Below, piece after piece: positions 16,129 through 63,587 of a DNA stretch of 64,000 bases. The notes below the pieces were generated by a model that did no database searches, was not told the DNA's origin, and saw only the letters and a list, made by a program, of their open reading frames with translations. Source of the stretch: Candidatus Acidiferrum sp. Lineage in GTDB: Bacteria > Acidobacteriota > Terriglobia > Acidiferrales > UBA7541. The first letter of the stretch is position 1; each line of letters starts with the position of its first letter. A program made the translations under genes and the position numbers. The stretch is from the NCBI GenBank assembly GCA_041486245.1, contig JBGPLB010000003.1, positions 5,032 through 69,031 on the forward strand. Reading direction: 5' to 3'.

Positions 16129-16178
16129 CTGTGCTACATTGCAAGCGCTTACTTTATTCTTCCTCCGGAGGTCCTTCC

Positions 16179-23546: not shown

Positions 23547-23576
23547 AGCCAGTCTAGGCGGCCTTATCGGACTGGT

Positions 23577-23649
23577 GGAGGCATTCACCGAGCAGAATTC
23601 TTCTCCCCCACACCCCGGGAGAGTTCGGTGGATGCCTCCTTTTCTGTTT
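23577..23649 (+). terminator. Rho-independent terminator candidate after TBDR1
   Basis: 15-bp stem GGAGGCATTCACCGA / TCGGTGGATGCCTCC (one G-U pair) encloses an inner CTCCC/GGGAG hairpin and is followed by TTTTCTGTTT. Confidence 0.6.
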
Positions 23650-23824
23650 GCACCACCACGATTGCGCGCGCAAGCACTCACCTCGCGGCGACGCAGGTAA
23701 TCGGATAAAAGCCTTCCGGTCCCTTCGTCGCTGCTCTTTGATGGTTCAATCTTTTTTGAAGCTGTGTGAGAATACTCTTCGCGACGCTCAGCGGCCAGTA
23801 ATTCGAACGGTACTAACTCTAGTA

Positions 23825-23853
23825 TTGACAGGTTGTAACAATCATGCTATCCT
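23825..23853 (+). promoter_or_regulatory. sigma70-like promoter candidate upstream of the TPR-CRTAC1 genes
   Basis: TTGACA (23825-23830), 17 nt, then TATCCT (23848-23853). It would give a leader of about 250 nt before the TPR gene. Confidence 0.3.
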
Positions 23854-24104
23854 TGTTTGTGTATTTTGAGCCAAAAACCCGTAACGCCTCCACCCACGCT
23901 CTTGCTGTGCCCGCCGTTGGTCCCGCGATCGCAGCCGCGAGGAACGAGCCCTTTCCCTCTAACCCCTTTATAATCAACATCTCTAGGCTGCCTCATAAGT
24001 GTTGCATACAAAAGACTTACAGATTTGCTAACTCGTTTAGAATCCGCACTTACAAAAAACCGGGGGGAGGGGGCACGTTATCGTTAACTAGGCCCACACC
24101 CTTC

Positions 24105-31222: not shown

Positions 31223-31236
31223 TGTAATCGTTTACA
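31223..31236. promoter_or_regulatory. LacI-type operator candidate TGTAATCGTTTACA
   Basis: 14-bp CG-centred near-palindrome (12 of 14 positions symmetric) in the LacI-1 / isomerase intergenic region. A TTGACA-17-ATATCT promoter-like element lies at 31278-31306. Confidence 0.45.
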
Positions 31237-31631
31237 TTATCACAGGATGGCCGCTCCCACGGTCTGCATTCCTGGTCTTGACAAGCATGCGACTTCCGGA
31301 ATATCTTGCCACTGCAAGCGATTACAAACAATGGACGCAAATGTGCTTCACGAACTGACGCTCCAGAGAAAGCCTCGGGGCCATTCTCCGTTAGAATTTT
31401 AGTTTACGGTGACAATTTGTTCCGTTCCAGTTCAGTCGAAGTCCTCCACTGCTTTGGCATACCCAGTGTCTTCCATTTGGCAGAGCCAGAATTGAGCGTC
31501 ATCTACAACGCATTGCGATGGCGGGTAAAGTTACTTTCCAAGCGAGGCATGCGACCATGGACACTTTGTGCGTACGTCTGTGGAGTGCATTTGCTCCAAG
31601 ACGCGCTGTGTGAGGGAGTGGAGATCATCCA

Positions 31632-46609: not shown

Positions 46610-46638
46610 TTGCAATCTGAAAAACGGGTGGTACTATA
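46610..46638 (+). promoter_or_regulatory. sigma70-like promoter candidate for xylA-GH67
   Basis: TTGCAA (46610-46615), a 16-17 nt spacer, then TACTAT/ACTATA (46632-46638). Confidence 0.35.
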
Positions 46639-46644
46639 GCACGG

Positions 46645-46660
46645 CCGTTAACGTACACGG
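46645..46660. promoter_or_regulatory. Operator candidate, site A (CCGTTAACGTACACGG)
   Basis: 16-bp ACGT-centred imperfect palindrome immediately downstream of the -10 candidate. Matches the site at 59945-59960 in 15 of 16 positions and the site at 53486-53501 in 13 of 16 (reverse complements). Confidence 0.5.
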
Positions 46661-46723
46661 TCATTTTTCCCGCCGTTCTGCACGCAATGTGGATGAAACC
46701 TAGGTTCGACAAGGAACCCACGA

Positions 46724-47893
46724 ATGAGCAGAAATCCGTTTGAGCCTCAGAAGGAGCACAAATTCTCGTTTGGCCTTTGGACTGTGGGAAATCGCGGGCG
46801 CGATCCGTTTGGAGATTTTGTCAGAGACGCGCTCCCTCCCGACGATATTGTCGCGCTCCTGGCGGAGGTCGGCGCTTGGGGCGTGAACCTCCACGACAAC
46901 GACCTTGTGCCGATTGACGCAACGACACAGGAGCGTGATCGCATCGTGGCGAGTTTCAAAAAGGCTTGCGAGCGTCATCACATCGTGGTTCCCATGGCGA
47001 CGGTGAATGCTTTCTTCGATCCCGTCTTCAAGGACGGTGCCTACACGTCAAATGATCCTGCCGTCCGTGCCTATGCATTGCAGAAGGTCCTGCGCGCGAT
47101 GGACCTCGGCGCGGAGCTTGGTGCAAAGATTTTTGTGGTATGGAGTGGCCGGGACGGCGTGGAAACCGACTCCTGCCGCGATCCGCTGGAAGCCATCAAA
47201 CGCTACCGGGATGCGCTCAACTACATGGCCCGCTATTCCGCGGATCGGGGATACGGATACAAATTCGCACTAGAAGCGAAGCCAAATGAGCCGCGCGCCA
47301 ACATTTATTTTCCCACGACGGGCCATTACCTCGCATTTATCAACACGCTCGACGAGCATGAGAAATTTGGAGTGAATCCCGAAGTCGCCCACGAGCACAT
47401 GGCCGGTCTGAATTGCGCGCACGCCCTGGCTCTGGCGTGGGATGCGGGCAAACTCTTTCACCTGGATCTGAATGACCAGATGGCAGGATGCTACGATCAG
47501 GACTTTCGTTTCGGTTCCTACAATCTGAAATCGGCATTTTTCATTGTAAAATTTCTGGAAGATGTCGGCTATCAGGGGCCGCGGCACTTCGACGCGCACG
47601 CCTACCGCACCGAAGATTACGAAGGCGTGAAGGATTTCGCGCGCGGTTGCATGAGGACGTATCTCATCCTGAAAGAAAAAACCAAGCTCTGGAGCCAAAA
47701 CAAGCAAATTCAGCAAATCCTGCGGGAGATTCAAACTCCCGGGGCGCCTTTTCTGGAGGTGAAAGGCTACTCGAAAGCGCACGCAACAAAGTTGCTCCAG
47801 CACAACTTTGATCGCAACGCACTCGCCAAGAAACCGCTCCCATACGAGCGGCTGGATCAGCTCACGGTGGATTTGTTGCTGGGAGTTCTGTAG
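46724..47893 (+). CDS. xylA: Xylose isomerase (short class I type)
   Basis: FSFGLWTVGNRGRDPFGD, FALEAKPNEPR and NPEVAHEHMAGLN are canonical XylA motifs. At 389 aa it matches the actinobacterial/Thermus-type short class. Confidence 0.95.
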   Translation: MSRNPFEPQKEHKFSFGLWTVGNRGRDPFGDFVRDALPPDDIVALLAEVGAWGVNLHDNDLVPIDATTQERDRIVASFKKACERHHIVVPMATVNAFFDPVFKDGAYTSNDPAVRAYALQKVLRAMDLGAELGAKIFVVWSGRDGVETDSCRDPLEAIKRYRDALNYMARYSADRGYGYKFALEAKPNEPRANIYFPTTGHYLAFINTLDEHEKFGVNPEVAHEHMAGLNCAHALALAWDAGKLFHLDLNDQMAGCYDQDFRFGSYNLKSAFFIVKFLEDVGYQGPRHFDAHAYRTEDYEGVKDFARGCMRTYLILKEKTKLWSQNKQIQQILREIQTPGAPFLEVKGYSKAHATKLLQHNFDRNALAKKPLPYERLDQLTVDLLLGVL

Positions 47894-47915
47894 AACGCTA
47901 GATTTTTCAAATCCC

Positions 47916-50444
47916 ATGCGTCATTTACGATCCATCACGATTTGCGGGGTGCTTCTACTTCTCGCTCTTGGGTCGACATGCGCCCGAGCCGAGACGGGGG
48001 CTGACGCGTGGTTGCGCTATGCCCCGCTGGAGAAGGAGGCCGCCTCAAAGTACTCACGCTTGCCCGCAAACGTTGTGGTGCTCGGCGATTCCCCCGTGCT
48101 CGAATCCGCGAGAGCCGAGTTGATCCGCGGCATTCGAGGAATGTTGGGTAGGACACTGCGCGACTACAAGAACTTGCCGAAGGAGAACACCATCGTCCTC
48201 GGCACACTTTCTGCGTTGCAATCCGCTTCCCCCAATCTCCTCGAGCATACTCATCTTCGCGAAGACGGCTTTTTTCTAGCGACCGAACAAGTGCATGGAT
48301 TCGAATGCGTCATTGTCACAGCAACGAATGACCGCGGCGTTATGTATGGCGTGTTCGCGCTGCTTAGCAAGATCGCGCGGAACGAAAACGTTTCCTCATT
48401 GCATGAAACTCAGCAGCCCTACGCACCCATTCGCTGGACGGACGAGTGGGACAACCTCGACGGCAGTATCGAGCGCGGCTACGCGGGGCCGTCTATATTT
48501 TTTGAGAACGGCAGCGTCCGCGCGGACTTGACGCGCGCCAGCGAGTACGCTCGCTTGCTCGCTTCCATCGGAATCAACGGATGCGCGATCAACAGCGTCA
48601 ACGCCAATCCGCGAGTTATTGAGGACTATTTTCTCCCGCAGTTCGCTCGCGTTGCCGATGTGTTTCGTCCCTGGGGTGTGCAGCTCGCAATCTCCGTTGA
48701 CGTCAGCAGTCCGAAAGTGATCGGAGGCCTCGACACTTTCGATCCCGCGGATGCTCGCGTCGCCGAATGGTGGAGCAAAAAAGTCGACGAGATTTACCGG
48801 CTGATTCCGGATTTTGCCGGCATTGTCGTCAAGGCGGATTCCGAAGGCCGCCTTGGCCCAGCCACGTATGGACGCACGCCCGCCGATGCCGCCAATGTGA
48901 TTGCGCGCTCTCTCAAACCGCATCACGGAATCGTTTTTTACCGCGCCTTTGTCTACAACCATCATCTCGATTGGCGCGATCCCAAAAACGACCGGGCCAG
49001 AGCCGCCTACGACATCTTTCATCCGCTCGACGGCAAGTTCGACGACAATGTGATCATCCAGATCAAACACGGACCGATTGATTTCCAGGTCCGTGAGCCG
49101 GCCTCACCGCTCTTCACCGGCCTCGAGAAAACAAATGAGGCTATCGAGCTGCAAGTCACGCAGGAATACACGGGCCAGCAACGGCATCTGTGTTTTCTTC
49201 CTCCGATGTGGAAGGAAGTTCTCGATTTCGATATGCACGCGGGCGAGCATCCCACACCGGTGAAGGATATTGTGGCTGGCAAGGCCTTTCATCGGCCCAC
49301 GGGCGGATTCGTTGCTGTCGTGAATGTCGGCATGGATGCCAACTGGCTCGGCCATCCGCTGGCCATGGCTAATCTTTATGGATTTGGCAGGCTGGCTTGG
49401 AATCCCCATCTCTCTTCCAAGAGCCTTGCACAGGAATGGACGCAACTAAGTTTTGGAAACGATCCCGTAGTAGTCCAAACAATTTCAAACATGCTGCTGA
49501 CGTCCTGGCCGATCTACGAAAGCTATACGGGTCCGCTGGGCGCGGGAACGCTTACGGATATCCTCGGAAGCCATTATGGGCCGGGAGTTGAATCGTCCGA
49601 ACGAAACGGCTGGGGACAATGGCATTGCGCTGACCACGATGGCATCGGGATGGACCGGACGGCCACCACGGGCACCGGCTATGTCGATCAATATCGCGCC
49701 CCTGTCGCAAAAAGTTACGAGTCCCTGGCCACCACTCCGGACGAACTGCTGCTTTTCTTTCATCATGTGCCCTACACCTACGTTTTGCATTCGAGAAAAA
49801 CAGTCATCCAGCGCATTTACGATTCGCATTACGCAGGCGCGGAAGCCGCGGCAAATCTCATTCAGCAATGGAATTCGTTGAAAGGCCGCGTGGATGGCGA
49901 GCGTTACGCGGAAGTGTTGAAGCGCCTCGAATATCAGGCTGGGCATGCGATTGTTTGGCGCGATGCAGTTTGTAATTGGTTTTTTCGTGTTTCCGGCGTA
50001 CCCGATCAGCACGGCCGAGTTGGACATTATCCCGACCGCATTGAGGCCGAAGCGATGCAGTTGCAAGGTTACGTGCCCTTCGATGTTATTCCCTCCGAGG
50101 ACGCTTCGGGCGGGAAGGCGGTTGAGTGCGCGCCCCCGGCGCAAAAGTGTTCTGCGGCATTCCGCTTCAATGGCGCTGCGGGAAAGTACGAGATGGACGT
50201 CGAGTATTTTGACCAGAACAACGGAAAATCGAAATTTCGCGTCCTGGTTGGCGATCGCGTCGTCGACGAATGGGCCGCCGATGATCACTTGCCGTCGAAA
50301 AAGCCGAACGCTGATTCTTCAACACGGCGCCGGATCACGGGTCTCGCGCTTCGTCCTGACGATAGCATCCGCATTGAAGGGATTCCGGATAGTGAAGAGC
50401 GCGCATCTCTGGACTATATCGAAATCCAGCTTTCGTCCGAATGA
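47916..50444 (+). CDS. aguA: Glycoside hydrolase family 67 alpha-glucuronidase with a C-terminal CBM-like extension of about 134 aa
   Basis: ATG at 47916, 22 nt after the xylA stop. Signal peptide. GH67 motifs GADAWLRY, IQIKHGPIDFQVREP and VTQEYTGQQ. The extension (50040-50441) runs from IEAEAMQLQGY to LDYIEIQ. Confidence 0.9.
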   Translation: MRHLRSITICGVLLLLALGSTCARAETGADAWLRYAPLEKEAASKYSRLPANVVVLGDSPVLESARAELIRGIRGMLGRTLRDYKNLPKENTIVLGTLSALQSASPNLLEHTHLREDGFFLATEQVHGFECVIVTATNDRGVMYGVFALLSKIARNENVSSLHETQQPYAPIRWTDEWDNLDGSIERGYAGPSIFFENGSVRADLTRASEYARLLASIGINGCAINSVNANPRVIEDYFLPQFARVADVFRPWGVQLAISVDVSSPKVIGGLDTFDPADARVAEWWSKKVDEIYRLIPDFAGIVVKADSEGRLGPATYGRTPADAANVIARSLKPHHGIVFYRAFVYNHHLDWRDPKNDRARAAYDIFHPLDGKFDDNVIIQIKHGPIDFQVREPASPLFTGLEKTNEAIELQVTQEYTGQQRHLCFLPPMWKEVLDFDMHAGEHPTPVKDIVAGKAFHRPTGGFVAVVNVGMDANWLGHPLAMANLYGFGRLAWNPHLSSKSLAQEWTQLSFGNDPVVVQTISNMLLTSWPIYESYTGPLGAGTLTDILGSHYGPGVESSERNGWGQWHCADHDGIGMDRTATTGTGYVDQYRAPVAKSYESLATTPDELLLFFHHVPYTYVLHSRKTVIQRIYDSHYAGAEAAANLIQQWNSLKGRVDGERYAEVLKRLEYQAGHAIVWRDAVCNWFFRVSGVPDQHGRVGHYPDRIEAEAMQLQGYVPFDVIPSEDASGGKAVECAPPAQKCSAAFRFNGAAGKYEMDVEYFDQNNGKSKFRVLVGDRVVDEWAADDHLPSKKPNADSSTRRRITGLALRPDDSIRIEGIPDSEERASLDYIEIQLSSE

Positions 50445-50841
50445 TTTGGCTTCGACGAAACAATCCCTGCCCCCGCGCATTACACTTCTAGCGTTTCCAC
50501 CTTGCCAAAGACTCAGTACGATTTGGGAGCCGGTCAGTCTCCGTTGAATGCGTTTACACAAACGTTCATCAAAAAGTGGATCCCTGCGCAGGCGGGAAGC
50601 CTGTTCCCATCCGTTGTCCGCAGGGAGCGGAAAAACCATGTGCAGTACCGAACAGCATTGAGGATTGGATGTTTCTATAATGACGCAAGAGTCTAGATGT
50701 GACTCCGGCCGCAGATGTATGAATTTCGAGTTCCCAACTGCGGCGACCCGGCAAACCATCAGAATCACATCGAAGACACCGAGCTTAGTTGGTCTGATTG
50801 ACCTCCCGCCAGCGAAGGAACATCAGGCAGAAAGAAGCACA

Positions 50842-52071
50842 ATGCGCTTCATCTTATCCATTCGTTCATTGCTGTTCGCACTCGTATTGCTAGCCATCTC
50901 GGCAGCATCATCCGCCCAAATTAGCGTAGGAACCTCAATCAGGATCGCCCCACCCGAACTGCCCGTCTACGAGCAGCCCATCAGCCCCGGTGACGACTAT
51001 ATCTGGACCCCGGGTTATTGGGCGTATGGCGACGACGATTATTATTGGGTACCGGGAACTTGGGTCATAGCTCCCGAGGTCGGCTACCTCTGGACTCCGG
51101 GCTACTGGGGAGAAGATGGCGACGACTACATCTTTCACGAAGGCTATTGGGGAACACAAGTCGGTTTCTACGGCGGAATTAATTATGGCTATGGCTACTT
51201 TGGTCGCGGCTACGAAGGCGGACGCTGGGACAACGGCCACTTTTTCTACAACCAATCAGTGAGCCATGTCGACGTATCCCGTAATCGCAACGTCTACAAC
51301 ACAAGAGTCGAGGACAACAACTCCGGTAATCGCGTCAGCTTTAACGGCGGCCGCGGCGGCAGAAGCGATCGTCCCACGTCTCAAGAAGAAGCTGCCGAAC
51401 GCGAGAGGCACATCGCGCCGGTGGCCGCGCAAACTCAGCATGTTCAGTCTGCCCGCACCAACCCTGAGCTACGCTCCTCCGCAAATCACGGCAAGCCGCC
51501 CATCGCTGCTACCTCTAAGCCGGGAGCATTCAGAGACAGCGGAGCAGTAGCTGCCAGAGAAGGCGGAGCAGTTCATAGCGCCCCTCCCGCTTCCGTGAAC
51601 AACAATGATCGCCCTAGCAACGAGACGGCACGGCCGAGCACCGAGACCGCTCGCCCGAACACCGAGTCTCCACGCCAGAACGCCGAGACCGCTCGTCCAA
51701 ACGCAGAGACTACTCGCCCAAGTCCAGCGACGCATGCCAGGGATCTTCCGCCCGCGGAGCAAGTCGCCGCGTCAAATACCGGCAATGCTAAACGGGACCA
51801 GAAGTACCAGCAGCAGCAGCAAAGGCTTCAAGTACAGCAAGTCAGTGAGCGCACGAAACTCCAGACAAAGCAAGAGCAGGATCATCAGCGGCTCCCGCAA
51901 AGTCCCGCCAATGCACCGCGCCAGCAACAGCTGGAGCAGAAGCACCAACAGCAGACACAGCAACTGGAGCAAAAACACACCCAGCAACAACAACAGTTGC
52001 AGCAACGCCAGCAACCAGCATCGCATCAGACCGCGCCAAAGCCAGAAGAGAAGAAAAAGCCTTCTCAATAG
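50842..52071 (+). CDS. YXWGXW-repeat secreted protein with a low-complexity (7-aa tandem repeat plus Gln-rich) C-terminal tail
   Basis: Signal peptide MRFILSIRSLLFALVLLAISAASSAQ. Repeats YIWTPGYWAY, YYWVPGTWV, YLWTPGYWG and YIFHEGYWG. The tail is described under findings. Confidence 0.85.
   Translation: MRFILSIRSLLFALVLLAISAASSAQISVGTSIRIAPPELPVYEQPISPGDDYIWTPGYWAYGDDDYYWVPGTWVIAPEVGYLWTPGYWGEDGDDYIFHEGYWGTQVGFYGGINYGYGYFGRGYEGGRWDNGHFFYNQSVSHVDVSRNRNVYNTRVEDNNSGNRVSFNGGRGGRSDRPTSQEEAAERERHIAPVAAQTQHVQSARTNPELRSSANHGKPPIAATSKPGAFRDSGAVAAREGGAVHSAPPASVNNNDRPSNETARPSTETARPNTESPRQNAETARPNAETTRPSPATHARDLPPAEQVAASNTGNAKRDQKYQQQQQRLQVQQVSERTKLQTKQEQDHQRLPQSPANAPRQQQLEQKHQQQTQQLEQKHTQQQQQLQQRQQPASHQTAPKPEEKKKPSQ
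51619..51723 (+). repeat. Five tandem 21-bp (7-codon) repeats inside the YXWGXW gene
   Basis: Encodes NETARPS / TETARPN / TESPRQN / AETARPN / AETTRPS, read codon by codon. Confidence 0.8.
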
Positions 52072-52198
52072 ACCCAGCGAACTACCCTGACAGAATTGCA
52101 CAGTGGACGGAGGCAAGCCTGGTATCCACCCCGGCAGTGCCGGGCTTGCTCGCAGTGCGCCGCATAATCGAAAATTGACGCTCTACCGGACGAAAACC

Positions 52199-53305
52199 CT
52201 ACGTTTGCAAAAGAGCACTGCCCTTAAGCACCGGTTCGCTAGGCTTGATTTCCGACAGCCGGATTTCGCGGAAGAGATGCAGGTTCGTGGACATCACGAC
52301 TCCGGGGCTGAGATGCGCTGCCGGAGGGAGGTGAACTTTGTTGGTGAGATTATCGGCAATGAGGCGCACCGCGATCTGACCCTGCCGATACGGATGCTGG
52401 TAAATCGATGCGGTGATGATCCCTTTTTGAAAGTAAGGAGCCATCTCTGCAAAGAGGTCCGTGGTGATTAGCTTAACTTTGCCCTCGAACCCCTGCGCTC
52501 CGAGAGCGCGGCACACCGGAAGGCAGTTGACGGTGTTCACATAAAGTCCATCGAGCACGGGGAAGCGGCGGAGGAGATCAGACGTCTTCTGGAAGCTCTC
52601 GTTCTCATCCTCGTGTCCTTCGACTACGCTGATGATTTTGCCCCCCGGGCAGTGCCGCAGAAATCCTTCCGAGAAGCCGTCCGTCTTCTTTCGATGATCC
52701 TCGGTCGTCAGCATCCCCGCAACGACCGCCACCTTCGAACCGCGTGGAACAAACTTGCCCATCAATTCACCCGCCAGGCATCCGTTCAAGTACGGCTCAA
52801 CGCAAACGATGCTGGAGCGCCGGCTCTCCGGAGCATCCGTGGAAACACACACTACGCGGAGGCCTTTTTCTTCCGCTTCGTTGATCAGCGGCGTAAGAGC
52901 CTTCGGATTTCCCGCCGTGAGGATAATTCCATGTACCCCACTTTCCACCAGTTCCTGGAACGCCTTTTTATCTCCTTCTCCCAACGATTGAACGGGACGG
53001 TTCACAAATTCGATTCCGAGTTGCTCCAGATGCCGCGCCTCGTCCAAAACTCCGCCCCAAAGCTGGTCGTAGAAAAAGTGGATTTCTTTGGGAATGCAGA
53101 CTCCAATGCGAACTCCAGCTCTCGCAACCGAAAGTGCGCGAGCTGCGAGATTAGGCGAATAGCCTATTTGTTGCGCGATTTGCAGAATCCGCTTGCGGGT
53201 CGATTCTTTAATCCCGCCTCGCCCGTGCAGAGCGCGATCCACGGTTCCGATAGAAACATTCGCCATCTCAGCGATTAAATGGATTCCGTGTTTTCCCTTG
53301 CTCAT
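52199..53305 (-). CDS. LacI-family transcriptional regulator (LacI-2)
   Basis: HTH IHLIAEMANVSIGTVDRALHGRGGIKESTRKRI followed by a PBP-like sugar-binding core. Confidence 0.9.
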   Translation of the reverse strand: MSKGKHGIHLIAEMANVSIGTVDRALHGRGGIKESTRKRILQIAQQIGYSPNLAARALSVARAGVRIGVCIPKEIHFFYDQLWGGVLDEARHLEQLGIEFVNRPVQSLGEGDKKAFQELVESGVHGIILTAGNPKALTPLINEAEEKGLRVVCVSTDAPESRRSSIVCVEPYLNGCLAGELMGKFVPRGSKVAVVAGMLTTEDHRKKTDGFSEGFLRHCPGGKIISVVEGHEDENESFQKTSDLLRRFPVLDGLYVNTVNCLPVCRALGAQGFEGKVKLITTDLFAEMAPYFQKGIITASIYQHPYRQGQIAVRLIADNLTNKVHLPPAAHLSPGVVMSTNLHLFREIRLSEIKPSEPVLKGSALLQT

Positions 53306-53485
53306 CTAGTGCACTCCGCCATTCCGCATGCCGTCCGCAACACGCTCTGCCGGAATGCTCCAGCCTGGCCCGCACGATATGACCTTTGAGTTCTCACCAA
53401 AGTAGCCGATTGGATTCAGCAGTCCCGAGCCCCCATCCTAAACTGTCATCCCTACAAAGCAAATTTAGGAGATGAGTCGCGCGGC

Positions 53486-53501
53486 CCGCGTACGTTAACA
53501 C
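53486..53501. promoter_or_regulatory. Operator candidate, site B (CCGCGTACGTTAACAC)
   Basis: Shares the exact 10-mer GTACGTTAAC with site A (as reverse complement). Lies in the LacI-2 / GH51 divergent intergenic region. Confidence 0.5.
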
Positions 53502-53712
53502 GATTTAATAGAGTCTGAGAAAGAATCAATCGACCAAGAAAATTTGCCCCGGAGAATTCCGCGCTTGCACATCTCCATGGATTGGGGAGTACAATCACGC
53601 CCGCCCTCACGACGAATTCGAGGCTCGCGTAAGCTTGGACGCGTCCCCGGCTTTGTTAGCCATGGATGAGAGCGCATTTATTAGGACCGAATTCCAAGTA
53701 GGGAGGCCTCGA

Positions 53713-55332
53713 ATGCGACCAGTCTCGCGGCGGAAATTCCTGCAAAAAGCCTCTGGAGCAGGCATCGCGCTTGGCGCGAATTTCGCCTTTGGAAGGAACT
53801 TGCTCGGCCAGACTTCGCCGAATTTAGCAAAGCCGGTCCGCATCTACGCCGACGCTCGCCGCACCCTTGCCCCAATCCAGCGAGAGCTGTTTGGCTCGTT
53901 TCTCGAGCAGTTGGGCCGGGCCATCTACGAGGGCATCTACGATCCGCAGTCGAAACTCTCGGACAGCAATGGCTATCGTAAGGATGTTACCGAAGAAATC
54001 CGCAAACTTGGGGTTCCCATCATTCGGTATCCCGGCGGAAATTTTGTTTCCGGCTACAACTGGCTCGACGGCATCGGCCCCAAAGCCAATCGTCCGAGAG
54101 TGCTGGACAGAGCCTGGAATACCGTCAACTCCAACGAGTTTGGAACGGATGAGTTTCTCGCGTGGTGCCGTCTCGCCAACACAGAGCCGCTGCTCGCGGT
54201 GAATCTAGGCACTGGGACCGCGGAGGAAGCAGCGGCCCTGGTCGAGTATTGCAATGTGGAGAAAGGCACGCGCTGGAGCGATCTTCGTCGTAAGAACGGA
54301 GTCGCCGGCGCTTACAAGGTTAAAAACTGGTGCCTCGGAAATGAAATGGATGGGCCCTGGCAGATCGGCCACATGACGGCAACTGAGTATGGTTTGAAAG
54401 CCGAAGACGCCGCGCGCCAAATGCGCTACGTGGATCCTTCGCTGAAACTGGTGGCATGCGGATCCAGCGGCCCGGGAATGCCCACGTATCTGGAATGGGA
54501 CCGCGAAGTTCTCGAACAATGTTACGACTACGTGGACGCAATTTCCCTTCATCGCTATTTCAACAATGCCGAAGATACGGGCGGCGATAGCTCCAAGTTC
54601 TTGGCCATGAACTTGAGTATGGAGCGGCAAATCGACGAAGTGGCGGCAGTTTGCGATGTGGTCCGCGGACACAAGCGGTCTTCGAAAATGCTGTGGCTAA
54701 GCTTCGACGAATGGAATGTCTGGTACCGCGCGCGGACCGGCGCCGCGGTTAACGGCGGCAGGCAAACTGCTCCGCATCTCTTGGAAGAAGTCTATAACCT
54801 GGAGGATGCTCTCCTGGTTGGTGGCCTGCTCAATGCTCTGATTCGCAAGGCAGACCGCGTGAAACTCGCCTGTCTCGCGCAACTCGTGAATGTAATAGCT
54901 CCCATCATGACCAACGAAAACAGTCTGCTGCGGCAAACCACTTACTATCCGTACAGCTGGGCGCTGGAATTTGCCCGTGGCGCGGCGCTTGATCTCTTGG
55001 TGGAATCACCGGCTTATGACGTTCCACGATTGGGAGAAGTTCCGTATGTCGACGTAGCCGGAACGCTACAGGCCGAATCCGGGAAAATGGCGCTTTTTCT
55101 GCTGAACCGCGATTTGGCGAAGCCTCGCCAAGTGGAAATCGTCTGGGAAGGCTCATCTCCGCGCGCCGGCGAAGCTATTGTCCTGACCGGGAGTGACCTA
55201 AAGGCTTCGAATACATTTGAAGCTCCTGCGCGAGTGACGCCGCAAAAGGGCGAAAAACCTTCGAACATAGGTGGACGTTCGAGCCTCGAGTTGCCGCCGC
55301 GTTCTTATACCGTTGTCCAATGGACCGCCTAG
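53713..55332 (+). CDS. abfA: Glycoside hydrolase family 51 alpha-L-arabinofuranosidase, Tat-exported
   Basis: ATG at 53713 after GGGAGG. Tat-like SRRKFLQKASGAG. GH51 motifs IIRYPGGNFVSGYNW, EFGTDEFLAW and WCLGNEMDGPWQIGH. Confidence 0.9.
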   Translation: MRPVSRRKFLQKASGAGIALGANFAFGRNLLGQTSPNLAKPVRIYADARRTLAPIQRELFGSFLEQLGRAIYEGIYDPQSKLSDSNGYRKDVTEEIRKLGVPIIRYPGGNFVSGYNWLDGIGPKANRPRVLDRAWNTVNSNEFGTDEFLAWCRLANTEPLLAVNLGTGTAEEAAALVEYCNVEKGTRWSDLRRKNGVAGAYKVKNWCLGNEMDGPWQIGHMTATEYGLKAEDAARQMRYVDPSLKLVACGSSGPGMPTYLEWDREVLEQCYDYVDAISLHRYFNNAEDTGGDSSKFLAMNLSMERQIDEVAAVCDVVRGHKRSSKMLWLSFDEWNVWYRARTGAAVNGGRQTAPHLLEEVYNLEDALLVGGLLNALIRKADRVKLACLAQLVNVIAPIMTNENSLLRQTTYYPYSWALEFARGAALDLLVESPAYDVPRLGEVPYVDVAGTLQAESGKMALFLLNRDLAKPRQVEIVWEGSSPRAGEAIVLTGSDLKASNTFEAPARVTPQKGEKPSNIGGRSSLELPPRSYTVVQWTA

Positions 55333-55417
55333 GCCGGACGTGACAGCCGATTGTAAGTCCACGAGCTCATGGCAATGCCCTTTGCCTCCTGCTATCATCC
55401 CTTCAGGGAAGTGTCTT

Positions 55418-57778
55418 ATGCAGCGACGGTCCGCACTGCTGTTGTTCTCTCTGCTCTTCTTGACCTCCTCCTTATGTTTTAGCCAAGGACCGATAAGGAA
55501 GTCCCTCTCCGGATATATTCGCGAGGAAGGGTCGGGCCACCTCATCACCGGGGCTCGCATAGAACTGCAAAATGCCATGGGTACCCCGATTGGCTCGGCA
55601 TACTCGGATGGTAATGGCGCGTACGAATTTGGCGATATCGGCGGCGGTGATTGCTATGTTTTGGTGCAACACGATGGTTACGACTCGTTCCGCCAGTTCG
55701 TGAGGCCGGATGGCTCGGGTCATGTATACAAAGATGTGTTCTTGCGGCCAGTGAGTCCTGAGTCCAAGTCCAAGTCCATAAACCCAGTTTCCGAGCACCA
55801 ATTGAGTATTCCGCGAAAAGCGCGAGAATCGTTCGACAATGGGATTCAGCTCATCGTTGAAAAGTCAGACTATCGAGGCGCCGTGGCTCAATTTGCCAAA
55901 GCCATCGACAAATATCCCTCTTACTATGAAGCCTTTGCTGCAATGGGCCTGGCACAGGAAAAAATGGGCGATGCGAAAGCGGCGGAGGCGGCGCTCCGAA
56001 AATCGGTTGAGCTGAGCGCGGAAAAGTATCCGCAGGCAATGATCGACCTCGCATCCATGTTCAATGGCCAAAAGCGTTTCCCCGAAGCCGAGCCTCTTCT
56101 CCGTAAAGTGATTGCTCTCGATGCTTCAACCTGGCGCGGCCCGTTTGAGCTAGCCGTTGCCTTGAATGGTCAGAATCGGTTTAGCGAAGCTCTGACAAGC
56201 GCGTCCACCGCCCGCGATCTGAAACCGGAAAACGCTCAAGTCTATTTGCTGCTCTACAATCTTCACATCCGCACGGATGATTTCAAGGCGGCGCTGGGCG
56301 ACACCGAGAGCTACCTCAAGCTCACGCCCGATGGCGCCACCGCTGACCGCGTTCGCCGCATGCAGGAACAAGTTCGAAAAGCGCTACAAACCTCTGTGAG
56401 CTCTCCCGGTCCGTCATCTGAGGTGACTCCTGTCACGCCACCCGCGGACTCCCCCGTTGACGCCGGCTCCTCGGCGCCGGGAGCGCTTTCTAATTTCACG
56501 CCGGTTGACACGGCCGACATGGCGCCGGCAGCTGCACCTGCCGCCGACGCCGCGAAAGTAGCTGCGTCGGTTCCAGCGACGGTGCCTGCAGATTCAGACA
56601 TCGCCCCGTCACCTGCCGCCGCACCATCCGTTGCCGCACCCGTCCCGGCAACTGCTGCCGCAAATGTTCCCGCTCAACCGAACGCCGCTGCTGCTACCGC
56701 ACGAAACGCCCTGATTCCTCCGCGCATGGACGAGATCGTCTCCCAGGTCGCTGTGGATGTTCCTTGCTCTCTCCCAACGATTTTGCTGGGTGCGGGCCAC
56801 CGCGCTGAGCAGCTTTTGAACACGCTACAAAAATTTAACGCCTCCGAGCGAGTCGAACATTACAAACTGAATGCAGCCGGAGTGCCTGGCGCTGCGGACG
56901 TTCGCTCGTTTGATTACGTTGTATCCGTGTCCCACGATGCGCAGGGCGGATTCCAATTGCAGGAATACCGTAACGGCGGCATCGTCCGCGCGCAACAGTT
57001 CCCGTCAGGAATCATCACCGAAAACCTTTCCGAGCATGGCCTCATCTTTCATCCGTTGCTCGCGAGTGGTTTCCATTTCACTTGTGAAGGGCTCGGAGAG
57101 TGGAAAGGACATCCAACGTGGCTGGTTCATTTCGAAGAAAAGCCGAACCAGCTTAATCCGTTCCGGTCGTATGTCATCGGGGGGGTTCGCTATCCAGTCC
57201 AGCTGACTGGCCGTGCATGGATCGACGCGCGCAGTTATCAGGTCGTCCGGCTCGAATCCGATTTACTTAAACCGGTCGAGAAGATCCACCTTGTGCGCGA
57301 CCACATCTCGATTGAATACGCATCAGTTCACTTCCGCACGCGGAATGAGCAACTTTGGCTCCCGCAATCGGCCGATCTTTATGTCGAATTGGGCGGACAC
57401 CGCTTCTACCGCCGCCACTCGTTCACCAACTTTAAGATTTTTTCCACAGACACCGCACAGGAAATCCATACCCCCCGGGAGTCCTACTGTTTCACGAACA
57501 CAACCGAGCTGCTGATTTCTGGAGTCCTGAACGCAACGCCTGTGTCGGGAAAAACTCTCCAACCGTTACCCATCGCGCTGACCATCCCTGCAAACGGTAC
57601 AGTTTGCAAAACCGTCGGGACGGGTAAGGACGTCAACATTCCCGTCGAGTATCTCGCGTCTGCCACGTTTACACACGATGGCCCTCCCGGGTCGGTCGAG
57701 GCAGACGCTTTCCTGCCCAATAACATCGCTTTGGAAGTCATACCCAACAGAAACGTTCCCGTCAGTCAAAACCCTTGA
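55418..57778 (+). CDS. Secreted multidomain protein: CarboxypepD_reg-like domain, TPR repeats, Pro/Ala-rich linker and a C-terminal domain of about 340 aa of unknown function
   Basis: Signal peptide MQRRSALLLFSLLFLTSSLCFSQG. LSGYIREEGSGHLITGARIELQN...GDCYVLVQHDGYDS matches CarboxypepD_reg. TPR-like repeats follow. The linker is about 100 aa of P/A/S/V-rich sequence. I do not recognise the C-terminal domain. Confidence 0.8.
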   Translation: MQRRSALLLFSLLFLTSSLCFSQGPIRKSLSGYIREEGSGHLITGARIELQNAMGTPIGSAYSDGNGAYEFGDIGGGDCYVLVQHDGYDSFRQFVRPDGSGHVYKDVFLRPVSPESKSKSINPVSEHQLSIPRKARESFDNGIQLIVEKSDYRGAVAQFAKAIDKYPSYYEAFAAMGLAQEKMGDAKAAEAALRKSVELSAEKYPQAMIDLASMFNGQKRFPEAEPLLRKVIALDASTWRGPFELAVALNGQNRFSEALTSASTARDLKPENAQVYLLLYNLHIRTDDFKAALGDTESYLKLTPDGATADRVRRMQEQVRKALQTSVSSPGPSSEVTPVTPPADSPVDAGSSAPGALSNFTPVDTADMAPAAAPAADAAKVAASVPATVPADSDIAPSPAAAPSVAAPVPATAAANVPAQPNAAAATARNALIPPRMDEIVSQVAVDVPCSLPTILLGAGHRAEQLLNTLQKFNASERVEHYKLNAAGVPGAADVRSFDYVVSVSHDAQGGFQLQEYRNGGIVRAQQFPSGIITENLSEHGLIFHPLLASGFHFTCEGLGEWKGHPTWLVHFEEKPNQLNPFRSYVIGGVRYPVQLTGRAWIDARSYQVVRLESDLLKPVEKIHLVRDHISIEYASVHFRTRNEQLWLPQSADLYVELGGHRFYRRHSFTNFKIFSTDTAQEIHTPRESYCFTNTTELLISGVLNATPVSGKTLQPLPIALTIPANGTVCKTVGTGKDVNIPVEYLASATFTHDGPPGSVEADAFLPNNIALEVIPNRNVPVSQNP

Positions 57779-57823
57779 CCGCCTTTTCCATTTGGACCGC
57801 TGAACCTCGATGCTCCGGTGTCC

Positions 57824-59713
57824 TCATCCCGGCTTGTTTCGTTCGACTTCATCCTTTGCTTCGCGGATTGTTAAGATGCGATCAACTCCGGCCGGCGTGA
57901 TTTTTTGTCTTGCCCCGCTTGGCCAATAAACCTCAATCGAATCTACCTCAGTGGCTTTGCCCAACCCAAAATGGATGCGTTGATCTGAGCTCGAGCCGTA
58001 GGATCCGCCGCTATATACCTCTCCCCGCTGGCGAACTCCGCCTGCCGTCAGAAATACTTTTGCTCCGTTAGCATCCCGCGGACTCTTTGGCCCGCCGATG
58101 AGCTTCAGGTCCAGCCAATGATTGCCGGTCTTCAGCACATTTCGCAGCAATGTAGGTGTTGCATCGATGTTATTGATCACGACATCGATCGCGCCATCGT
58201 TGAAAATATCGCCGAATGCAGCGCCTCGGGCGGTAATCACGGCCGCAAGGCCACTCCCCGTTGCCGGGGGCACCTCTTGGAATTTCTTTCCGTCAAGGTT
58301 TCGGAAAAGCTGGGGGCGTTCTGCCCAGGTTGTTCCCCAATCTTGCTTGTCCACCTCCGGATACACGTGCCCGTTGGCAATAAAAAGGTCAAGCCAGCCG
58401 TCATTATCGTAGTCGAGAAAGCCGGTTCCCCAGGATAGAAATGGAGTTGTCGGACCGGCAAGCCCCGCCGCATAGGTAACGTCAGAAAAGCTTCCTCCGC
58501 CGTCATTTCGGTAAAGCGTCTTGTAGTCGTCGGAAAACGTTGTGGTGAACAGATCGATTCTGCCGGTGTGCTGGTAATCGCCGACAGCGATCCCCATGGA
58601 TGCCTGCTCGCGTCCGTCCTCGCTAAGTGCGAATCCCGAGGCATAACTCTCATCTTCAAATGTGCCGTTGTGCTTGTTGCGATAGAGATAGTTCGGCGTG
58701 GAATCATTTGCCACCAGCAGGTCCACCCACCCATCGTCATCTACGTCCACGAATGCCGAAGCCAGGCCGTAGTAACGGTTCGGATCGGAAACGCCGGCTT
58801 TAACGCTGACGTCCGCAAACGTACCATCGCCATTGTTGTGGAACAGGTGGTCGCTCTCTCCCGGCAAGCCTCGCGGTCCGCACATCACGGCAATCCCTCG
58901 AAATTGACAAAAATTTGGTGGAATTCGTCCTTGTCCCGCAATCGGCGGATTGTCCACGTCGTACTTCACATAGCCCGGTACAAATAAATCCAGCAATCCG
59001 TCGTGATCGTAATCGCCCCACGTGGGTCCAGCCGACCAGCCGCCTAGCGCCACGCCTGCCTTCTCAGCAACATCCGTAAAGGTGCCGTCGTGGTTGTTGT
59101 GATAGAGACGGTTCTTGCCAAAGTTCGCGACGTAAATATCCGGCCAGCCGTCATTGTCATAGTCGCCCACGGCCACGCCAAATCCCCAGCGCTTGTTGGC
59201 CACACCCGCTTTCTCCGTGACATCCGTAAAAGTGCCGTCATGATTGTTGTGGAAGAGCATGGCTCGCGGCGGAGCTTCCTTCCCCTTCAAAGCCGCTTCG
59301 GTGGAACCATTCAACAGATAGATGTCTTGCCAGCCGTCGTTGTCGTAGTCGAGCAACGCCACGCCGGAGCCGATGGTTTCAAGGATCGTCGTTTTCTCCG
59401 GAGCTCCAGAACGATGCAGGAACTTCTCGAGGCCAGCTTGTTTGGTAATGTCGCTGAACACAACCGTTGCGCCGTCGACAAATCCTCCTGCCGTGATTGG
59501 CCGGGAAAGTGAGTCCTTCACTGCGGGATGCGCAGCGCCGGTTGCAACTCCCATCCCCGAAGAAGGCTGCTTTGTCTTCTGATCTGGCCCCTGCTGGCCG
59601 GGTGAGCCCAGGGCGAGCAAAAAGATGAGAGAAGTGACTGAAATCAAACTCGCTGCTGCTCTCAGTTTTAAGCGACTGGCTTGCTTCGGCCATGGACTTG
59701 GAGACGTCATCAA
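57824..59713 (-). CDS. CRTAC1-family FG-GAP/VCBS + ASPIC/UnbV protein (CRTAC1-3)
   Basis: Same repeat architecture ([27 protein letters not shown], and so on). C-terminal GGSYGSSSDQRIHFGLG...IEVYWPSG. N-terminal hydrophobic signal. Confidence 0.9.
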   Translation of the reverse strand: MMTSPSPWPKQASRLKLRAAASLISVTSLIFLLALGSPGQQGPDQKTKQPSSGMGVATGAAHPAVKDSLSRPITAGGFVDGATVVFSDITKQAGLEKFLHRSGAPEKTTILETIGSGVALLDYDNDGWQDIYLLNGSTEAALKGKEAPPRAMLFHNNHDGTFTDVTEKAGVANKRWGFGVAVGDYDNDGWPDIYVANFGKNRLYHNNHDGTFTDVAEKAGVALGGWSAGPTWGDYDHDGLLDLFVPGYVKYDVDNPPIAGQGRIPPNFCQFRGIAVMCGPRGLPGESDHLFHNNGDGTFADVSVKAGVSDPNRYYGLASAFVDVDDDGWVDLLVANDSTPNYLYRNKHNGTFEDESYASGFALSEDGREQASMGIAVGDYQHTGRIDLFTTTFSDDYKTLYRNDGGGSFSDVTYAAGLAGPTTPFLSWGTGFLDYDNDGWLDLFIANGHVYPEVDKQDWGTTWAERPQLFRNLDGKKFQEVPPATGSGLAAVITARGAAFGDIFNDGAIDVVINNIDATPTLLRNVLKTGNHWLDLKLIGGPKSPRDANGAKVFLTAGGVRQRGEVYSGGSYGSSSDQRIHFGLGKATEVDSIEVYWPSGARQKITPAGVDRILTIREAKDEVERNKPG

Positions 59714-59944
59714 TAATTCCTAGATGGACTCCAAACTAGGAGTCAGTTGCGGAACTTCGTTCGTTGCGCGTCACGAGCAGGCCCGCGCGTTCAGAATCTG
59801 CTCCATTACTAACAGTATCAAAACCGGCCTCCCGGTTCACCGTCCGGCGGTCTCGCCGCAGTCAGTGGAAAGGTAAGCATCAGGGTCGCAGCTGCTACAA
59901 ATTAAAAAAAGTGCTTGACAACACTGTGGCTCCAGTGAAAAGCT

Positions 59945-59960
59945 CCGTTTACGTTAACGG
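59945..59960. promoter_or_regulatory. Operator candidate, site C (CCGTTTACGTTAACGG)
   Basis: 16-bp palindrome, 14 of 16 positions symmetric, 36 nt upstream of the TBDR2 ATG and 24 nt downstream of an A-tract plus TTGACA (59915-59920). Its reverse complement matches site A in 15 of 16 positions. Confidence 0.5.
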
Positions 59961-59995: not shown

Positions 59996-62900
59996 ATGAG
60001 TGTTTTGTCACCGTCTGCGAAGAATATCGTTTTTGTAGTCAATCCTTTTCGGCTCCGCTTTTTATTTGTTCTCTTAGTTGCCCTGATTGGTTTTTCGTTT
60101 TCGACCTTCGCTCAACAAGCCACCATCGTAGGGACAGTTACCGATCCTTCCGGTGCCGTTGTACCGAATGTGGCTGTAACCATCACAAATGCCGAGACGG
60201 GCTTGAGTCGAACGTATCCGACGAACGATGCCGGCCAGTACGTCGCGCCGGATCTTCGTATCGGCCACTACGACGTTAAAGCCACGGCTGCTGGATTCAA
60301 GGTAGCCGAGCAGAAGAGCATCGTGCTGAACGTTGGCGACCGCATTCGCGTTGATTTCCAGATGACGATGGGCGCCGCTCAGGAAACCGTTACTGTCGAA
60401 GCCAATGTTGTGCGCGTTCAGACTGATTCTGGAGAAGCCAGTAACCTCATCACCGGCCAGCAATTGTCGCAGCTTGCCGTGAACGGGCGCGGCATTTACC
60501 AGCTAGCTGCTCTGGCGCCTGGAGCCTCGAGTCGCATCAATCCCTCCGCTCCGAACACACCGGTTGGTGGCGATGCTGGGGTGCAATTCAACGGGATGCG
60601 CCAGAACCACAACATCTATTTACTCGATGGCGGCGAAAATGACGACCGCGGAGGCGCGGGCGGCATGAGCATTGCTCCATCCTCTGACTCCATCGCAGAA
60701 TTCCGAGCTCTCACTTCCAACTACAGCGCTGACTATGGCCTCTCTTCGGCTGCCACAATGACCATGGTTCTTAAGTCTGGTACGAGCCAGTTGCATGCTT
60801 CCGCCTGGGAGTTCAACCGCAACGACGCCTTCGATGCGCGCAATTTCTTCAATCCTGCGCCGCAAAAGGTTGCAGAGCTGCGCGTGAACGTCTTCGGCTT
60901 TAACGTAGGCGGCCCCGTAACCTTTGGCAAGCTTTACAACCCAAACAGAACCAAGACTTTCTTCTTCTACAACATGGAATGGCGCAAATATATTAACGGC
61001 GGTCTCACCAACCAAACGGTTCCGGACCCTGCATCTTATGGCGGTAACTTTAGCTCCAACACCGCCGTGATCAACGTCCCGAGCGCCGCGCAAGTTGCTC
61101 CAAACGTCCTCTTTGGCAATTGTCCCGGTGGCGCTGCCCCTGCGGGAGTTGTCCAGGGATCGCCGTTTCCGGGCAACATTATTCCGGCCTGTATGATCTC
61201 TCCGAACGCGACGGCTTTGCTCACCGCTGGAATTTTCCCCAAGGCCAATGCCGTTGATTCTAACGGGCGCCCCACGTTTATCGGCGGCAACAACTCTCCC
61301 ACGAATTTGAAGGAAGAGATTGTCCGCATCGATCACAACTTCAGCAGCAAGTTTTCTGTGTTTGGCCACTACATCGCCGAACAGGTCTCGCAGGGCTTCG
61401 GGATCAGTCAGTGGAGCGGTGCCAACGTTCCTACCGTCGGCGACACGTTTGGCAACCCGTCGTACAGTGCCGTTATCCATACCACCTATAGCATTAGCCC
61501 AACGCTGATCAACGAGGCTGCCTTCAACTACAACGGTAACCGCATCAACATCATCCCATTTGCGGGTTCCGGTTTGGCTAGCCTGGCCCTCCCGAGCGGT
61601 TACGTCTCCACGAATTCCAGGCTCTTCACCGGCCCGAATAATTCGAACCGCATCCCGAATATCGATTTGAACGGCGGAATTAACTCCCATTTCGAAATCG
61701 CCAGCTGGCCTTGGACGAACAAGGCTGACGATTACCAGGTCCGCGACGACCTATCCCTCACCAAGGGAACGCACCAACTCAAGTTCGGAGCAAGCTGGGC
61801 AATCTATAAGAAGGTTCAGGACCTGTTCGGTACGACCCAGGGTTCCTTCAACTTTGACGGGACGTTTACCACGCCTGCTGGTCAGAAGAGCAAGGCCGGC
61901 AACGACCTTGCTGATTTCCTGCTCGGCACCGCAAAGAGCTACAACGAACTCGCGGTTCAAGATCACGGCTATTGGAACAACGTCTCTTGGGCCGCCTACG
62001 TCCAGGATAACTGGCGCGTAAACCGCCGGCTCACCTTGAACCTGGGCTTGCGCTGGGACGGTGTGCCGCACACTTACGAAGCCAACAACCGCATGGGCAA
62101 CTTTTACCCGTCACTTTACAACACCGCCAACGCGGCCACTTTCGATACCGCTCACAACATCTGCAGCGGGCCCGCGGATCCTGGCTGCACTGCAATCAGT
62201 CCCGGCCTTGGCACTAGCCCCAATTCGATTCTTGCCGGTGTTCCCCTTTACCTCAATGGCATCGGCATCCCTGGCCAGAACGGTGTCCCCAAGGGTCTAG
62301 TGAACAATCACTGGGCCGCCTTCGGTCCTCGAATCGGCTTTGCCTATGACCTGACTGGCAGCGGCAAGACCGTGGTTCGCGGCGGCTTCGGCGCGATGTA
62401 CGAGCGCATCCAGGGCAACGACATGTACAACGCCGGCCCCAATATCCCGTTCAGCTTGGGCGTCACCCTCAACAGCGTAACGTTGGCGAACCCGGGCATC
62501 GCACTTGCCAGTGGGAGCGCAGCTAGCCGTCCAATCAATGCCGCGGACATCACTGGTCTTGCCGTTGACAACTATAAGCTGCCGGTCAGCTACCAGTGGA
62601 GCGTTGGCGTGCAGCATTCGCTGAGTGCCAAGTCGGTGTTATCGGTTTCCTATGTTGGCAACCAGAACCGCCATCAGAACGATTACACCGAGTACAATCT
62701 GCCTGACCCGAGCGTGCTCCCTGCGCTCATCGGTGGCGCCAACTACAGCTCGCAGCCGACCCTGCCCTTTAAGGGTTTCCACTCCATTCGCCAGGCATCC
62801 AACGAAGCCAACGGGCACTACAACGCGCTTCAGGTGGATTTGAACTCGCAGGTCGGCCGTGACCTTCAGCTTCGCGCCTACTACACGCTGTCGCGTACCA

Positions 62901-63526: not shown

Positions 63527-63547
63527 CCACCCCGGAAGCAGCACCCC

Positions 63548-63587
63548 GCCCCGCTCGCACGCACTGCGAGCGGGGCGTTTTCTTTTT
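63548..63587 (+). terminator. Rho-independent terminator after TBDR2
   Basis: 12-bp GC-rich stem GCCCCGCTCGCA / TGCGAGCGGGGC with a 5-nt loop, followed by GTTTTCTTTTT. Confidence 0.8.

Follow-up and report, generated by a model that had tools for sequence, protein, structure and literature searches.

The question raised by this locus is whether a short palindrome that recurs in three of its intergenic regions joins genes for xylose catabolism, xylan debranching and outer-membrane transport into one regulon, and which protein would bind to it. The window, here meaning the whole stretch of 64,000 nt that was analysed, was taken from contig JBGPLB010000003.1 of Candidatus Acidiferrum sp. (GCA_041486245.1, positions 5,032 to 69,031 of the forward strand). 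It carries genes for a GH3 glycoside hydrolase, a xylose isomerase (xylA), a GH67 alpha-glucuronidase, a LacI-family regulator (LacI-2), a GH51 alpha-L-arabinofuranosidase, a beta-propeller protein (CRTAC1-3) and an outer-membrane barrel (TBDR2), together with a second barrel cassette (TBDR1-TPR1-CRTAC1-1) and a further regulator gene, LacI-1. Overall, the palindrome is very likely an operator bound by a LacI-family repressor, for which the neighbouring LacI-2 is the most probable candidate, and this repressor would govern a xylose/glucuronoxylan regulon in Terriglobia Acidobacteriota (Ca. Acidoferrum clade).

The preliminary description of this DNA had reported three near-identical 16-mers with a common 9-mer, GTTAACGTA, and all three were found where it had placed them. 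Read from the window, the sites are O1 CCGTTAACGTACACGG (46645-46660), O2 CCGCGTACGTTAACAC (53486-53501; reverse complement GTGTTAACGTACGCGG) and O3 CCGTTTACGTTAACGG (59945-59960). The 9-mer had exactly three matches on both strands of the window, while dinucleotide shuffles gave a mean of 0.12 copies and none of 100 shuffles reached three. The consensus, nCGTkwAC-GTwmACGn, is a CG-centred 16-bp imperfect palindrome (8+8) that contains the 9-mer, and CG occupied positions 8-9 in all three sites. When as many as three mismatches to the 16-mer were allowed, the window held a single extra near-miss, at 23067, which was coding and inside TBDR1. A palindromic half-site matrix made from the six half-sites of the three sites scored O3 at 25.0, O1 at 23.8 and O2 at 17.6, and the next-best position in the window scored 13.1 and lay inside GH67. 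All three sites fell within the 5761 non-coding bases of the 64000 (9%), for which the chance is about 7e-4, and their distances to the start codons ranged from 35 to 180 nt. No second site was found in the CRTAC1-3/TBDR2 intergenic region, where the next-best score was 1.0. A near-site at 50550-50565, in the spacer between GH67 and a WXXGXW gene, was rejected with a score of 9.4, as it was not CG-centred and was not kept in comparison locus L002 (L-numbers denote comparison loci).

Conservation was followed in relatives of LacI-2, taken as one genome per species, which gave 72 loci. Of these, 70 were from Acidobacteriota metagenome-assembled genomes (MAGs), mostly labelled Ca. Acidoferrum or Terriglobia, with a LacI-2 identity of 55% to 99%. 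Two loci with full acidobacterial synteny and 83-87% LacI-2 identity (L005 and L034) came from MAGs labelled Verrucomicrobiia and Betaproteobacteria, and these contigs are probably mis-binned or mislabelled. A matrix scan, which the preliminary description had proposed for whole genomes, gave a clear excess in the 1.30 Mb of LacI-2-centred loci to which it was applied, with 130 sites scoring at least 15 compared with 3-7 in block-shuffled copies. Counting a site within 400 nt upstream, the motif preceded GH3 in 43/43 cases, TBDR2 in 47/50, xylA in 20/25 and an xylB-like FGGY kinase in 4/5. It also preceded LacI-2 in 24 of 66 loci at a score of at least 15, plus centre-variant sites. Footprinting of the orthologous intergenic regions, likewise proposed earlier, showed that the motif was kept upstream of the GH3, TBDR2 and xylA orthologues. 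In the close clade, the identical O1 16-mer stood 64 nt from the GH3 start in nearly all of the 43 orthologous loci. The 64-nt distance was unchanged in the many species without xylA, in which GH67 itself was directly divergent from GH3 and the operator lay in the region that the two genes share.

Since whole leaders are conserved in close relatives, the distant loci are the informative cases. In these loci (LacI-2 identity of 55-80%) the gene order was rearranged and the flanks of the sites could not be aligned; LacI-2 was followed by TBDR2 in tandem, xylA was divergent from LacI-2, or xylB-xylA was divergent from GH3. The core CGTGTACGTTAACG was present here ahead of TBDR2, GH3, xylA, LacI-2, FGGY-kinase(xylB)-xylA operons and a GH115 xylan alpha-glucuronidase, so that the motif is conserved upstream of xylose and xylan genes whether or not these are orthologous. 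Built from 31 distinct 16-mers (62 half-sites), the half-site matrix read n-C-G-T-[T/G]-[A/T]-A-C, with C2, G3, T4, A7 and C8 near-invariant. The core of the regulon in other genomes (xylB-xylA, GH3, GH67 and GH115) is xylose and glucuronoxylan utilisation. Another comparison locus, L195, carried two good copies of the xylan-type operator (15682-15697 and 15963-15978), flanked on one side by a pentose-like five-gene cluster on the minus strand (two short open reading frames (ORFs) and genes for Aldolase_II, an SSF transporter and an FGGY kinase) and on the other side by one more CarboxypepD_reg barrel gene. In some genomes the regulon may thus take in another pentose operon as well as a second transporter.

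Metagenome contigs were also scanned starting from the motif, with the exact 14-mer CGTGTACGTTAACG in place of the degenerate CCGTKWACGTWMACGG, which has fewer than 14 plain bases. The scan gave at least 120 matching loci. Many of the 120 matches listed were chance occurrences inside long ORFs of organisms with low guanine-plus-cytosine (GC) content. Among the same 120 matches listed, 27 stood beside xylA, xylB, GH3, GH67, GH115, a TBDR2 homologue or a LacI-2 orthologue, and these 27 were on contigs of about 55-65% GC; in 16 of the 27, a LacI-2 orthologue with 54-79% identity was located no more than a few kb away. Other, unrelated LacI-family genes adjoined about 18 more of the matches listed. 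These contexts indicate that the type of sequence belongs to the LacI family and that the present version tracks LacI-2 together with xylose and xylan genes. The matches directly beside unrelated LacI-family genes (21-44% identity to LacI-2) were in L073, L074, L089, L111, L121-L123, L137, L138, L140, L167, L183, L185, L187 and L191, on contigs of very different GC content, and similar operators may have been adopted by several LacI lineages.

The preliminary description had named LacI-2 as the obvious candidate binder, and it is still the best candidate, with orthologues adjoining the motif even in the motif-first scan. Its helix-turn-helix (HTH) domain scored above the Pfam cutoff and is followed by the hinge motif ARAL. 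In complexes of LacI-family proteins with DNA, it is the leucine of this hinge that inserts into the central CpG. In NCBIfam, LacI-2 had only sub-threshold matches, to diverse LacI members. It is improbable, while still deserving consideration, that the operator is real and serves another binder, either a LacI paralogue elsewhere in the genome or LacI-1, with LacI-2 regulating something else. The atypical HTH of LacI-2 is consistent with such a binder, as is the presence of the exact 14-mer beside unrelated LacI-family genes in other phyla, by which the type of sequence is not unique to LacI-2. However, LacI-2 orthologues were located within a few kb of the motif in the 16 listed motif-first loci and in all rearranged loci, and in several rearranged loci the site abutted the -10 candidate of LacI-2 itself. 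LacI-1 lies 15 kb from the nearest site, was absent from most LacI-2 loci and has its own conserved motif, TGyAAnCGnTTrCA. The two regulators showed 38% identity over the 71-residue DNA-binding region and their recognition helices differ.

The consensus promoter scan called none of the promoter candidates abutting O1-O3, and the promoter elements considered here were read from the sequence and its conservation. Of the -35/-10 candidates described earlier at xylA and TBDR2, the hexamers are present and their spacing is conserved in other genomes, but they stay under the threshold of the consensus scan. The box TGCTATAGTACCA next to O1 was unique in the window and formed a block 90-100% conserved across 44 unique upstream sequences, and its spacing of 5-7 nt to the operator was kept in L034, L037, L038, L049, L062 and L069 despite divergent flanks. 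In relatives the box is partly palindromic (GGTAnnnTACC). It could represent overlapping extended -10 elements of both divergent promoters or a second protein-binding site, and its promoter role is putative, as is that of TTAAAT beside O2. The TTGACA of TBDR2 was 90-100% conserved across 40 unique upstream sequences. It stood 23-24 nt ahead of the operator in the window, L038 and L066, where the spacers differ, and the -10 of L038 and L066 read CAGATT or GAGATT.

Upstream of LacI-2 in L040, L041 and L048, TATATC, TATATT or TATAAC was followed after 1 nt by the operator, which is the layout of O2. The O2 site formed a conserved island, ATTAAATCGTGTTAA[C/G/T]GTACGCGG, between variable flanks. 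At position 53493, the centre of O2, the aligned loci L002-L068 had C in about half, G in most others and T in two, and the surrounding 24 bp were fixed. A centre that varies in this way is atypical of LacI operators and points to a site kept weak on purpose for autoregulation, or else to a second function. As O2 abuts a -10 candidate directed at LacI-2, autoregulation is suggested, and O2 looks like a weak autoregulatory site.

In the proposed mechanism, O1 would lie between back-to-back promoter candidates. For xylA-GH67 it would take up about +1 to +16 of the promoter, and for GH3 the -35/spacer region upstream of the extended -10. O3 would lie directly past the -10 candidate of the TBDR2 promoter, and O2 directly past that of the LacI-2 promoter, by which the repressor would control its own gene. 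Without inducer, a LacI-2 dimer would occupy each palindrome, with the hinge-helix leucine inserted into the central CpG, and RNA polymerase would be blocked. A sugar, most likely D-xylose or a xylo-oligosaccharide, would enter the Peripla_BP_4 domain and release the repressor; D-xylose is proposed as the inducer because the core targets are xylAB. The sign of regulation, the exact promoters, the effector and the physical binding of LacI-2 to the palindromes are predictions made from sequence.

It is very unlikely that the palindromes act at the RNA level by folding into hairpins in the 5' leaders, such as a terminator or attenuator at xylA. The terminator scan did flag 46643-46662 (6 pairs and a loop of 8, then ATTTTTCC), but this hairpin at O1 is weak, with a chance rate of 0.8 per region in shuffles, and O2 and O3 were not flagged as terminator-like. 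The 62 half-sites were conserved as sequence with no co-variation of pairs, the sites serve divergent promoters on both strands, and the window had no match to known RNA families (Rfam). Least probable of all and strongly disfavoured is a reading in which the sites have no regulatory function and are alike by chance or through neutral conservation between closely related intergenic regions. In its favour, close relatives do conserve whole leaders, and GTTAAC, GTAC and ACGT are common restriction-type palindromes, but the shuffles gave 0.12 copies against three in the window and 3-7 sites against 130 in the loci, and the motif outlasts its flanks and the gene order and precedes functionally coherent non-orthologous genes (xylB, GH115).

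Several observations weigh against a LacI-2 operator as the explanation. The comparison loci were chosen by means of LacI-2, so that co-occurrence with the motif is partly by construction and the motif-first scan alone is free of this bias. Close relatives keep the entire 5' leader, and O1 and O3 do not form isolated islands of conservation. The promoter hexamers at O1 and O3 are sub-threshold in the promoter scan, and in about half of the related species the central CG of O2 was replaced by GG or TG. Finally, the HTH of LacI-2 is divergent (43.6 bits) and its effector domain is closer to periplasmic binding proteins than to classical LacI cores.

Table 1. Features of the window, in order of position (a dot marks sites given without a strand).
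Feature	Position	Strand	Description
LacI-1-type motif TGCAAGCGATTGCA	19505-19518		Just upstream of the TTGACA of TBDR1
LacI-1-type candidate operator TGTAATCGTTTACA	31223-31236		LacI-1/isomerase intergenic region
LacI-1-type motif, second copy TGCAAGCGATTACA	31313-31326		LacI-1/isomerase intergenic region
GH3 glycoside hydrolase	44217..46580	-	Pfam Glyco_hydro_3, Glyco_hydro_3_C and Fn3-like; predicted target
-35 candidate of xylA-GH67, TTGCAA	46610..46615	+	16-nt spacer to TACTAT; conserved in alignment
Box TGCTATAGTACCA, candidate extended -10 (TGnTATAGT) for GH3	46629..46641	-	6 nt from O1
-10 candidate of xylA, TACTAT	46632-46637	+	Plus-strand reading of box TGCTATAGTACCA
O1	46645..46660	.	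Centre of the 143-bp GH3/xylA divergent region; 64 nt to GH3 start, 63 nt to xylA start
xylA, Arthrobacter-type xylose isomerase	46724..47893	+	NCBIfam TIGR02631 equivalog, 510.9 bits (cutoff 447); predicted target
GH67 alpha-glucuronidase	47808..50444	+	Pfam GH67 N, M and C domains; downstream of xylA; listed ORF start probably over-extended
LacI-2, LacI-family regulator	52199..53305	-	Pfam LacI HTH 43.6 bits, Peripla_BP_4 162.9 bits; candidate repressor
O2	53486..53501	.	Between LacI-2 and GH51; 180 nt upstream of LacI-2 start; weaker site
-10 candidate of LacI-2, TTAAAT	53503..53508	-	1 nt from O2
GH51 promoter candidate TGCACA-18-TACAAT	53566..53595	+	Hexamers conserved in alignment
GH51 alpha-L-arabinofuranosidase	53635..55332	+	NCBIfam ArfA equivalog, 636.9 bits (cutoff 625); LacI-2 neighbour
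CRTAC1-3 (FG-GAP and ASPIC/UnbV beta-propeller)	57824..59713	-	Pfam; divergent from TBDR2
-35 candidate of TBDR2, TTGACA	59915..59920	+	17-18 nt, then weak -10 (AAAAGC or AAAGCT) ending at O3
O3	59945..59960	.	Between CRTAC1-3 and TBDR2; 35 nt upstream of TBDR2 ATG at 59996
TBDR2, outer-membrane barrel, SusC-like domain order	59996..63526	+	Domain search; predicted target
Intrinsic terminator after TBDR2	63547..63577	+	13-bp stem, 11 GC pairs, then TTTTCTTTTT; 20 nt past the stop codon

The features at the sites are given in Table 1. The preliminary description had joined all of the flanking genes into one regulon, and this was borne out for GH3, xylA-GH67, the LacI-2 gene and TBDR2, which are linked by the motif, but not for the TPR, CRTAC1 and GH51 parts. 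The conserved promoter candidate of GH51 has its -35 about 65 nt beyond O2, and no second operator was found at that promoter, where the best matrix score was 0.4. A partial TPR gene lies behind TBDR2 at the end of the window. The strong conserved terminator behind TBDR2 weakens the case for co-regulation of the two as a unit, and no operator stands ahead of the TPR gene. A hairpin with a T-run followed TBDR2 in about 30 orthologous loci, and in the divergent loci L037, L049 and L053 different stem sequences still form a hairpin. The TBDR2 gene looks monocistronic or attenuated. CRTAC1-3 shares a 261-bp divergent region with TBDR2, and the only site there is the one at the TBDR2 promoter, with 232 nt between it and the start of CRTAC1-3, which weakens the co-regulation of CRTAC1-3 proposed earlier. 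In L007, L055 and L060, which are without CRTAC1-3, the site stays with TBDR2. In favour of a link, CRTAC1-3 is a conserved neighbour across clades, found in most of the close loci as well as in L041, L042 and L049, and L041 had a separate site within about 100 nt upstream of the estimated CRTAC1-3 coding start. The tie of the TPR and CRTAC1 proteins to the xylan regulon is a hypothesis from gene neighbourhood.

TBDR2 had a CarboxypepD_reg domain at residues 43-124 (70.6 bits), the barrel OMP_b-brl_4 (PF25183) at 258-1169 (685.7 bits) and between them a Plug at 144-252 with a sub-threshold score of 15.7 bits (cutoff 23.9). A sequence search of PDB with TBDR2 gave no match, and CRTAC1-3 matched PDB 9etn, human CRTAC1, at 5.7e-18. 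The CRTAC1 family is very large, with 8000 candidates that all had an E-value of at most 1e-50. The secure new prediction for this locus is TBDR2 as a xylan- or xylose-regulated outer-membrane transporter, which would tie to xylan or xylose uptake one barrel out of a large acidobacterial class that is otherwise uncharacterised.

The TBDR1-TPR1-CRTAC1-1 cassette had been drawn into the same regulon through a weaker relative of the motif at 24075-24090. This fourth site scored 7.5 and ranked 25th in the window, with most of the better positions inside genes, and is at the level of noise. It had been placed 15 nt upstream of TPR1 and in fact lies about 100 nt from where the TPR1 orthologues begin. 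The start of the TPR1 ORF at 23844 was found to be spurious, with orthologues of 313-322 amino acids that align from about 24192. TPR1 itself has about 290 amino acids in its mature form and a Sec-type signal without a lipobox. The motif was absent from four orthologous TBDR1-TPR1 intergenic regions (best scores of at most 1.6). The TBDR1-TPR1 spacer (23547-24190) was about 650 nt in the window compared with about 190-410 nt in the four orthologous loci.

The TBDR1 cassette has a conserved TGCAAGCGnTTGCA motif of the LacI-1 type (TGyAAnCGnTTrCA), unlike the xylan operator. The LacI-1-type motif was located ahead of the TBDR1 orthologues in 3/4 loci (L193:2827, L194:2564 and L195:2856) and also near a LacI-1 orthologue and a GH31 gene (L193:14539 and L194:15068). 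The TBDR1-TPR1-CRTAC1-1 cassette probably belongs to a separate LacI-1 regulon. The stretch directly upstream of TBDR1 (10701-19397) encodes a GH127 beta-L-arabinofuranosidase and two large DUF5695 proteins, of which one has an F5/8 type C domain, and DUF5695 adjoins the cassette in L193 and L196 as well. These GH127 and DUF5695 neighbours hint at the substrate of the second cassette. A paralogous barrel cassette with a different sugar-repressor motif suggests that operators could be used to assign the substrates of such cassettes. In addition, a cluster unrelated to the operator was found at 3622-10666 by a DPP-IV/S9 peptidase gene. It resembles the catabolism of hydroxyproline or a proline derivative, with genes for a proline-racemase-family protein, a flavin adenine dinucleotide (FAD) oxidase, a pyridine-nucleotide oxidoreductase, a DHDPS-family protein, an aldehyde dehydrogenase and a GntR/FCD regulator.

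By analogy with known xylose repressors, LacI-2 would be a functionally XylR-like regulator. XylR regulons reportedly include alpha-glucuronidase, xylosidases and TonB-dependent outer-membrane transporters. In Caulobacter crescentus and Xanthomonas, the LacI-type XylR and a palindromic xyl-box control xylose catabolism together with xylan-degrading enzymes, and xylose de-represses (PMC10380989). The present system shares with these a LacI-family repressor, a CG-centred palindromic operator at promoters and the joining of xylose catabolism with xylan enzymes, as the motif stands upstream of xylA, xylB (FGGY), GH3, GH67, GH115 and TBDR2, that is, of catabolism, debranching and a transporter. It differs in the operator, which is TGGTAGCGCTAACA in the xyl-box and nCGTkwACGTwmACGn here, in the phylum and in the Peripla_BP_4 type of the LacI-2 effector domain. 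The proteobacterial xyl-box TGGTAGCGCTA(A/C)CA had no match in the window within 3 mismatches. Overall, LacI-type repression of a xylan locus including an outer-membrane transporter is a mechanism known from Caulobacter and Xanthomonas and is new for this phylum as far as the literature was searched.

In a survey of the LacI family (Ravcheev et al. 2014, PMC4052901), the sites were even palindromes centred on CG that mostly lay 30-140 nt ahead of start codons, and autoregulation was usual; the word Acidobacteria does not occur in its text. The locus resembles the local LacI regulons of that survey in its even 16-bp palindrome, within the 16-22 bp of LacI sites, its central CG, the suggested autoregulation and the carbohydrate locus beside the regulator gene. 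O1 (64/63 nt) and O3 (35 nt) are inside the usual range of distances, and O2 is at 180 nt. No description of the half-site CGTkwAC and its set of targets was found in the literature searched, nor any paper in the searchable literature on this regulon or on acidobacterial barrel-TPR-CRTAC1 cassettes. Terriglobia Acidobacteriota rank with the most abundant bacteria of soil and also with the least tractable. No description of operator-level regulation was found for them, and the operator, candidate repressor and target list given here form a testable regulon for their use of hemicellulose.

The locus also resembles the xylan polysaccharide utilization loci (PULs) of Bacteroidota (SusC/SusD, GH67, GH3, GH43 and GH10), since a CarboxypepD_reg barrel is clustered and apparently co-regulated with glucuronoxylan-debranching enzymes. 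In contrast to those loci, which are regulated by a hybrid two-component system or an extracytoplasmic function (ECF) sigma factor, a LacI repressor is present here, the barrel gene has its own terminator and a small secreted TPR protein lies behind the barrel. No neighbouring gene had a SusD match in Pfam. As a SusD gene is missing and the type of regulator differs, the locus is not a SusC/SusD PUL. Tentatively, and with considerable doubt, the abundant cassettes of CarboxypepD_reg barrel, TPR and CRTAC1-like proteins might be the acidobacterial counterpart of SusC/SusD, each wired to a substrate-specific LacI-type repressor. TBDR2/CRTAC1-3 would then be wired to the LacI-2 xylan regulon, and TBDR1-TPR1-CRTAC1-1 to a second regulon (TGyAAnCGnTTrCA, probably of LacI-1) with GH31, DUF5695 and an isomerase. 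If so, the transporter would have the TPR and CRTAC1 proteins as partners that bind or process glycans.

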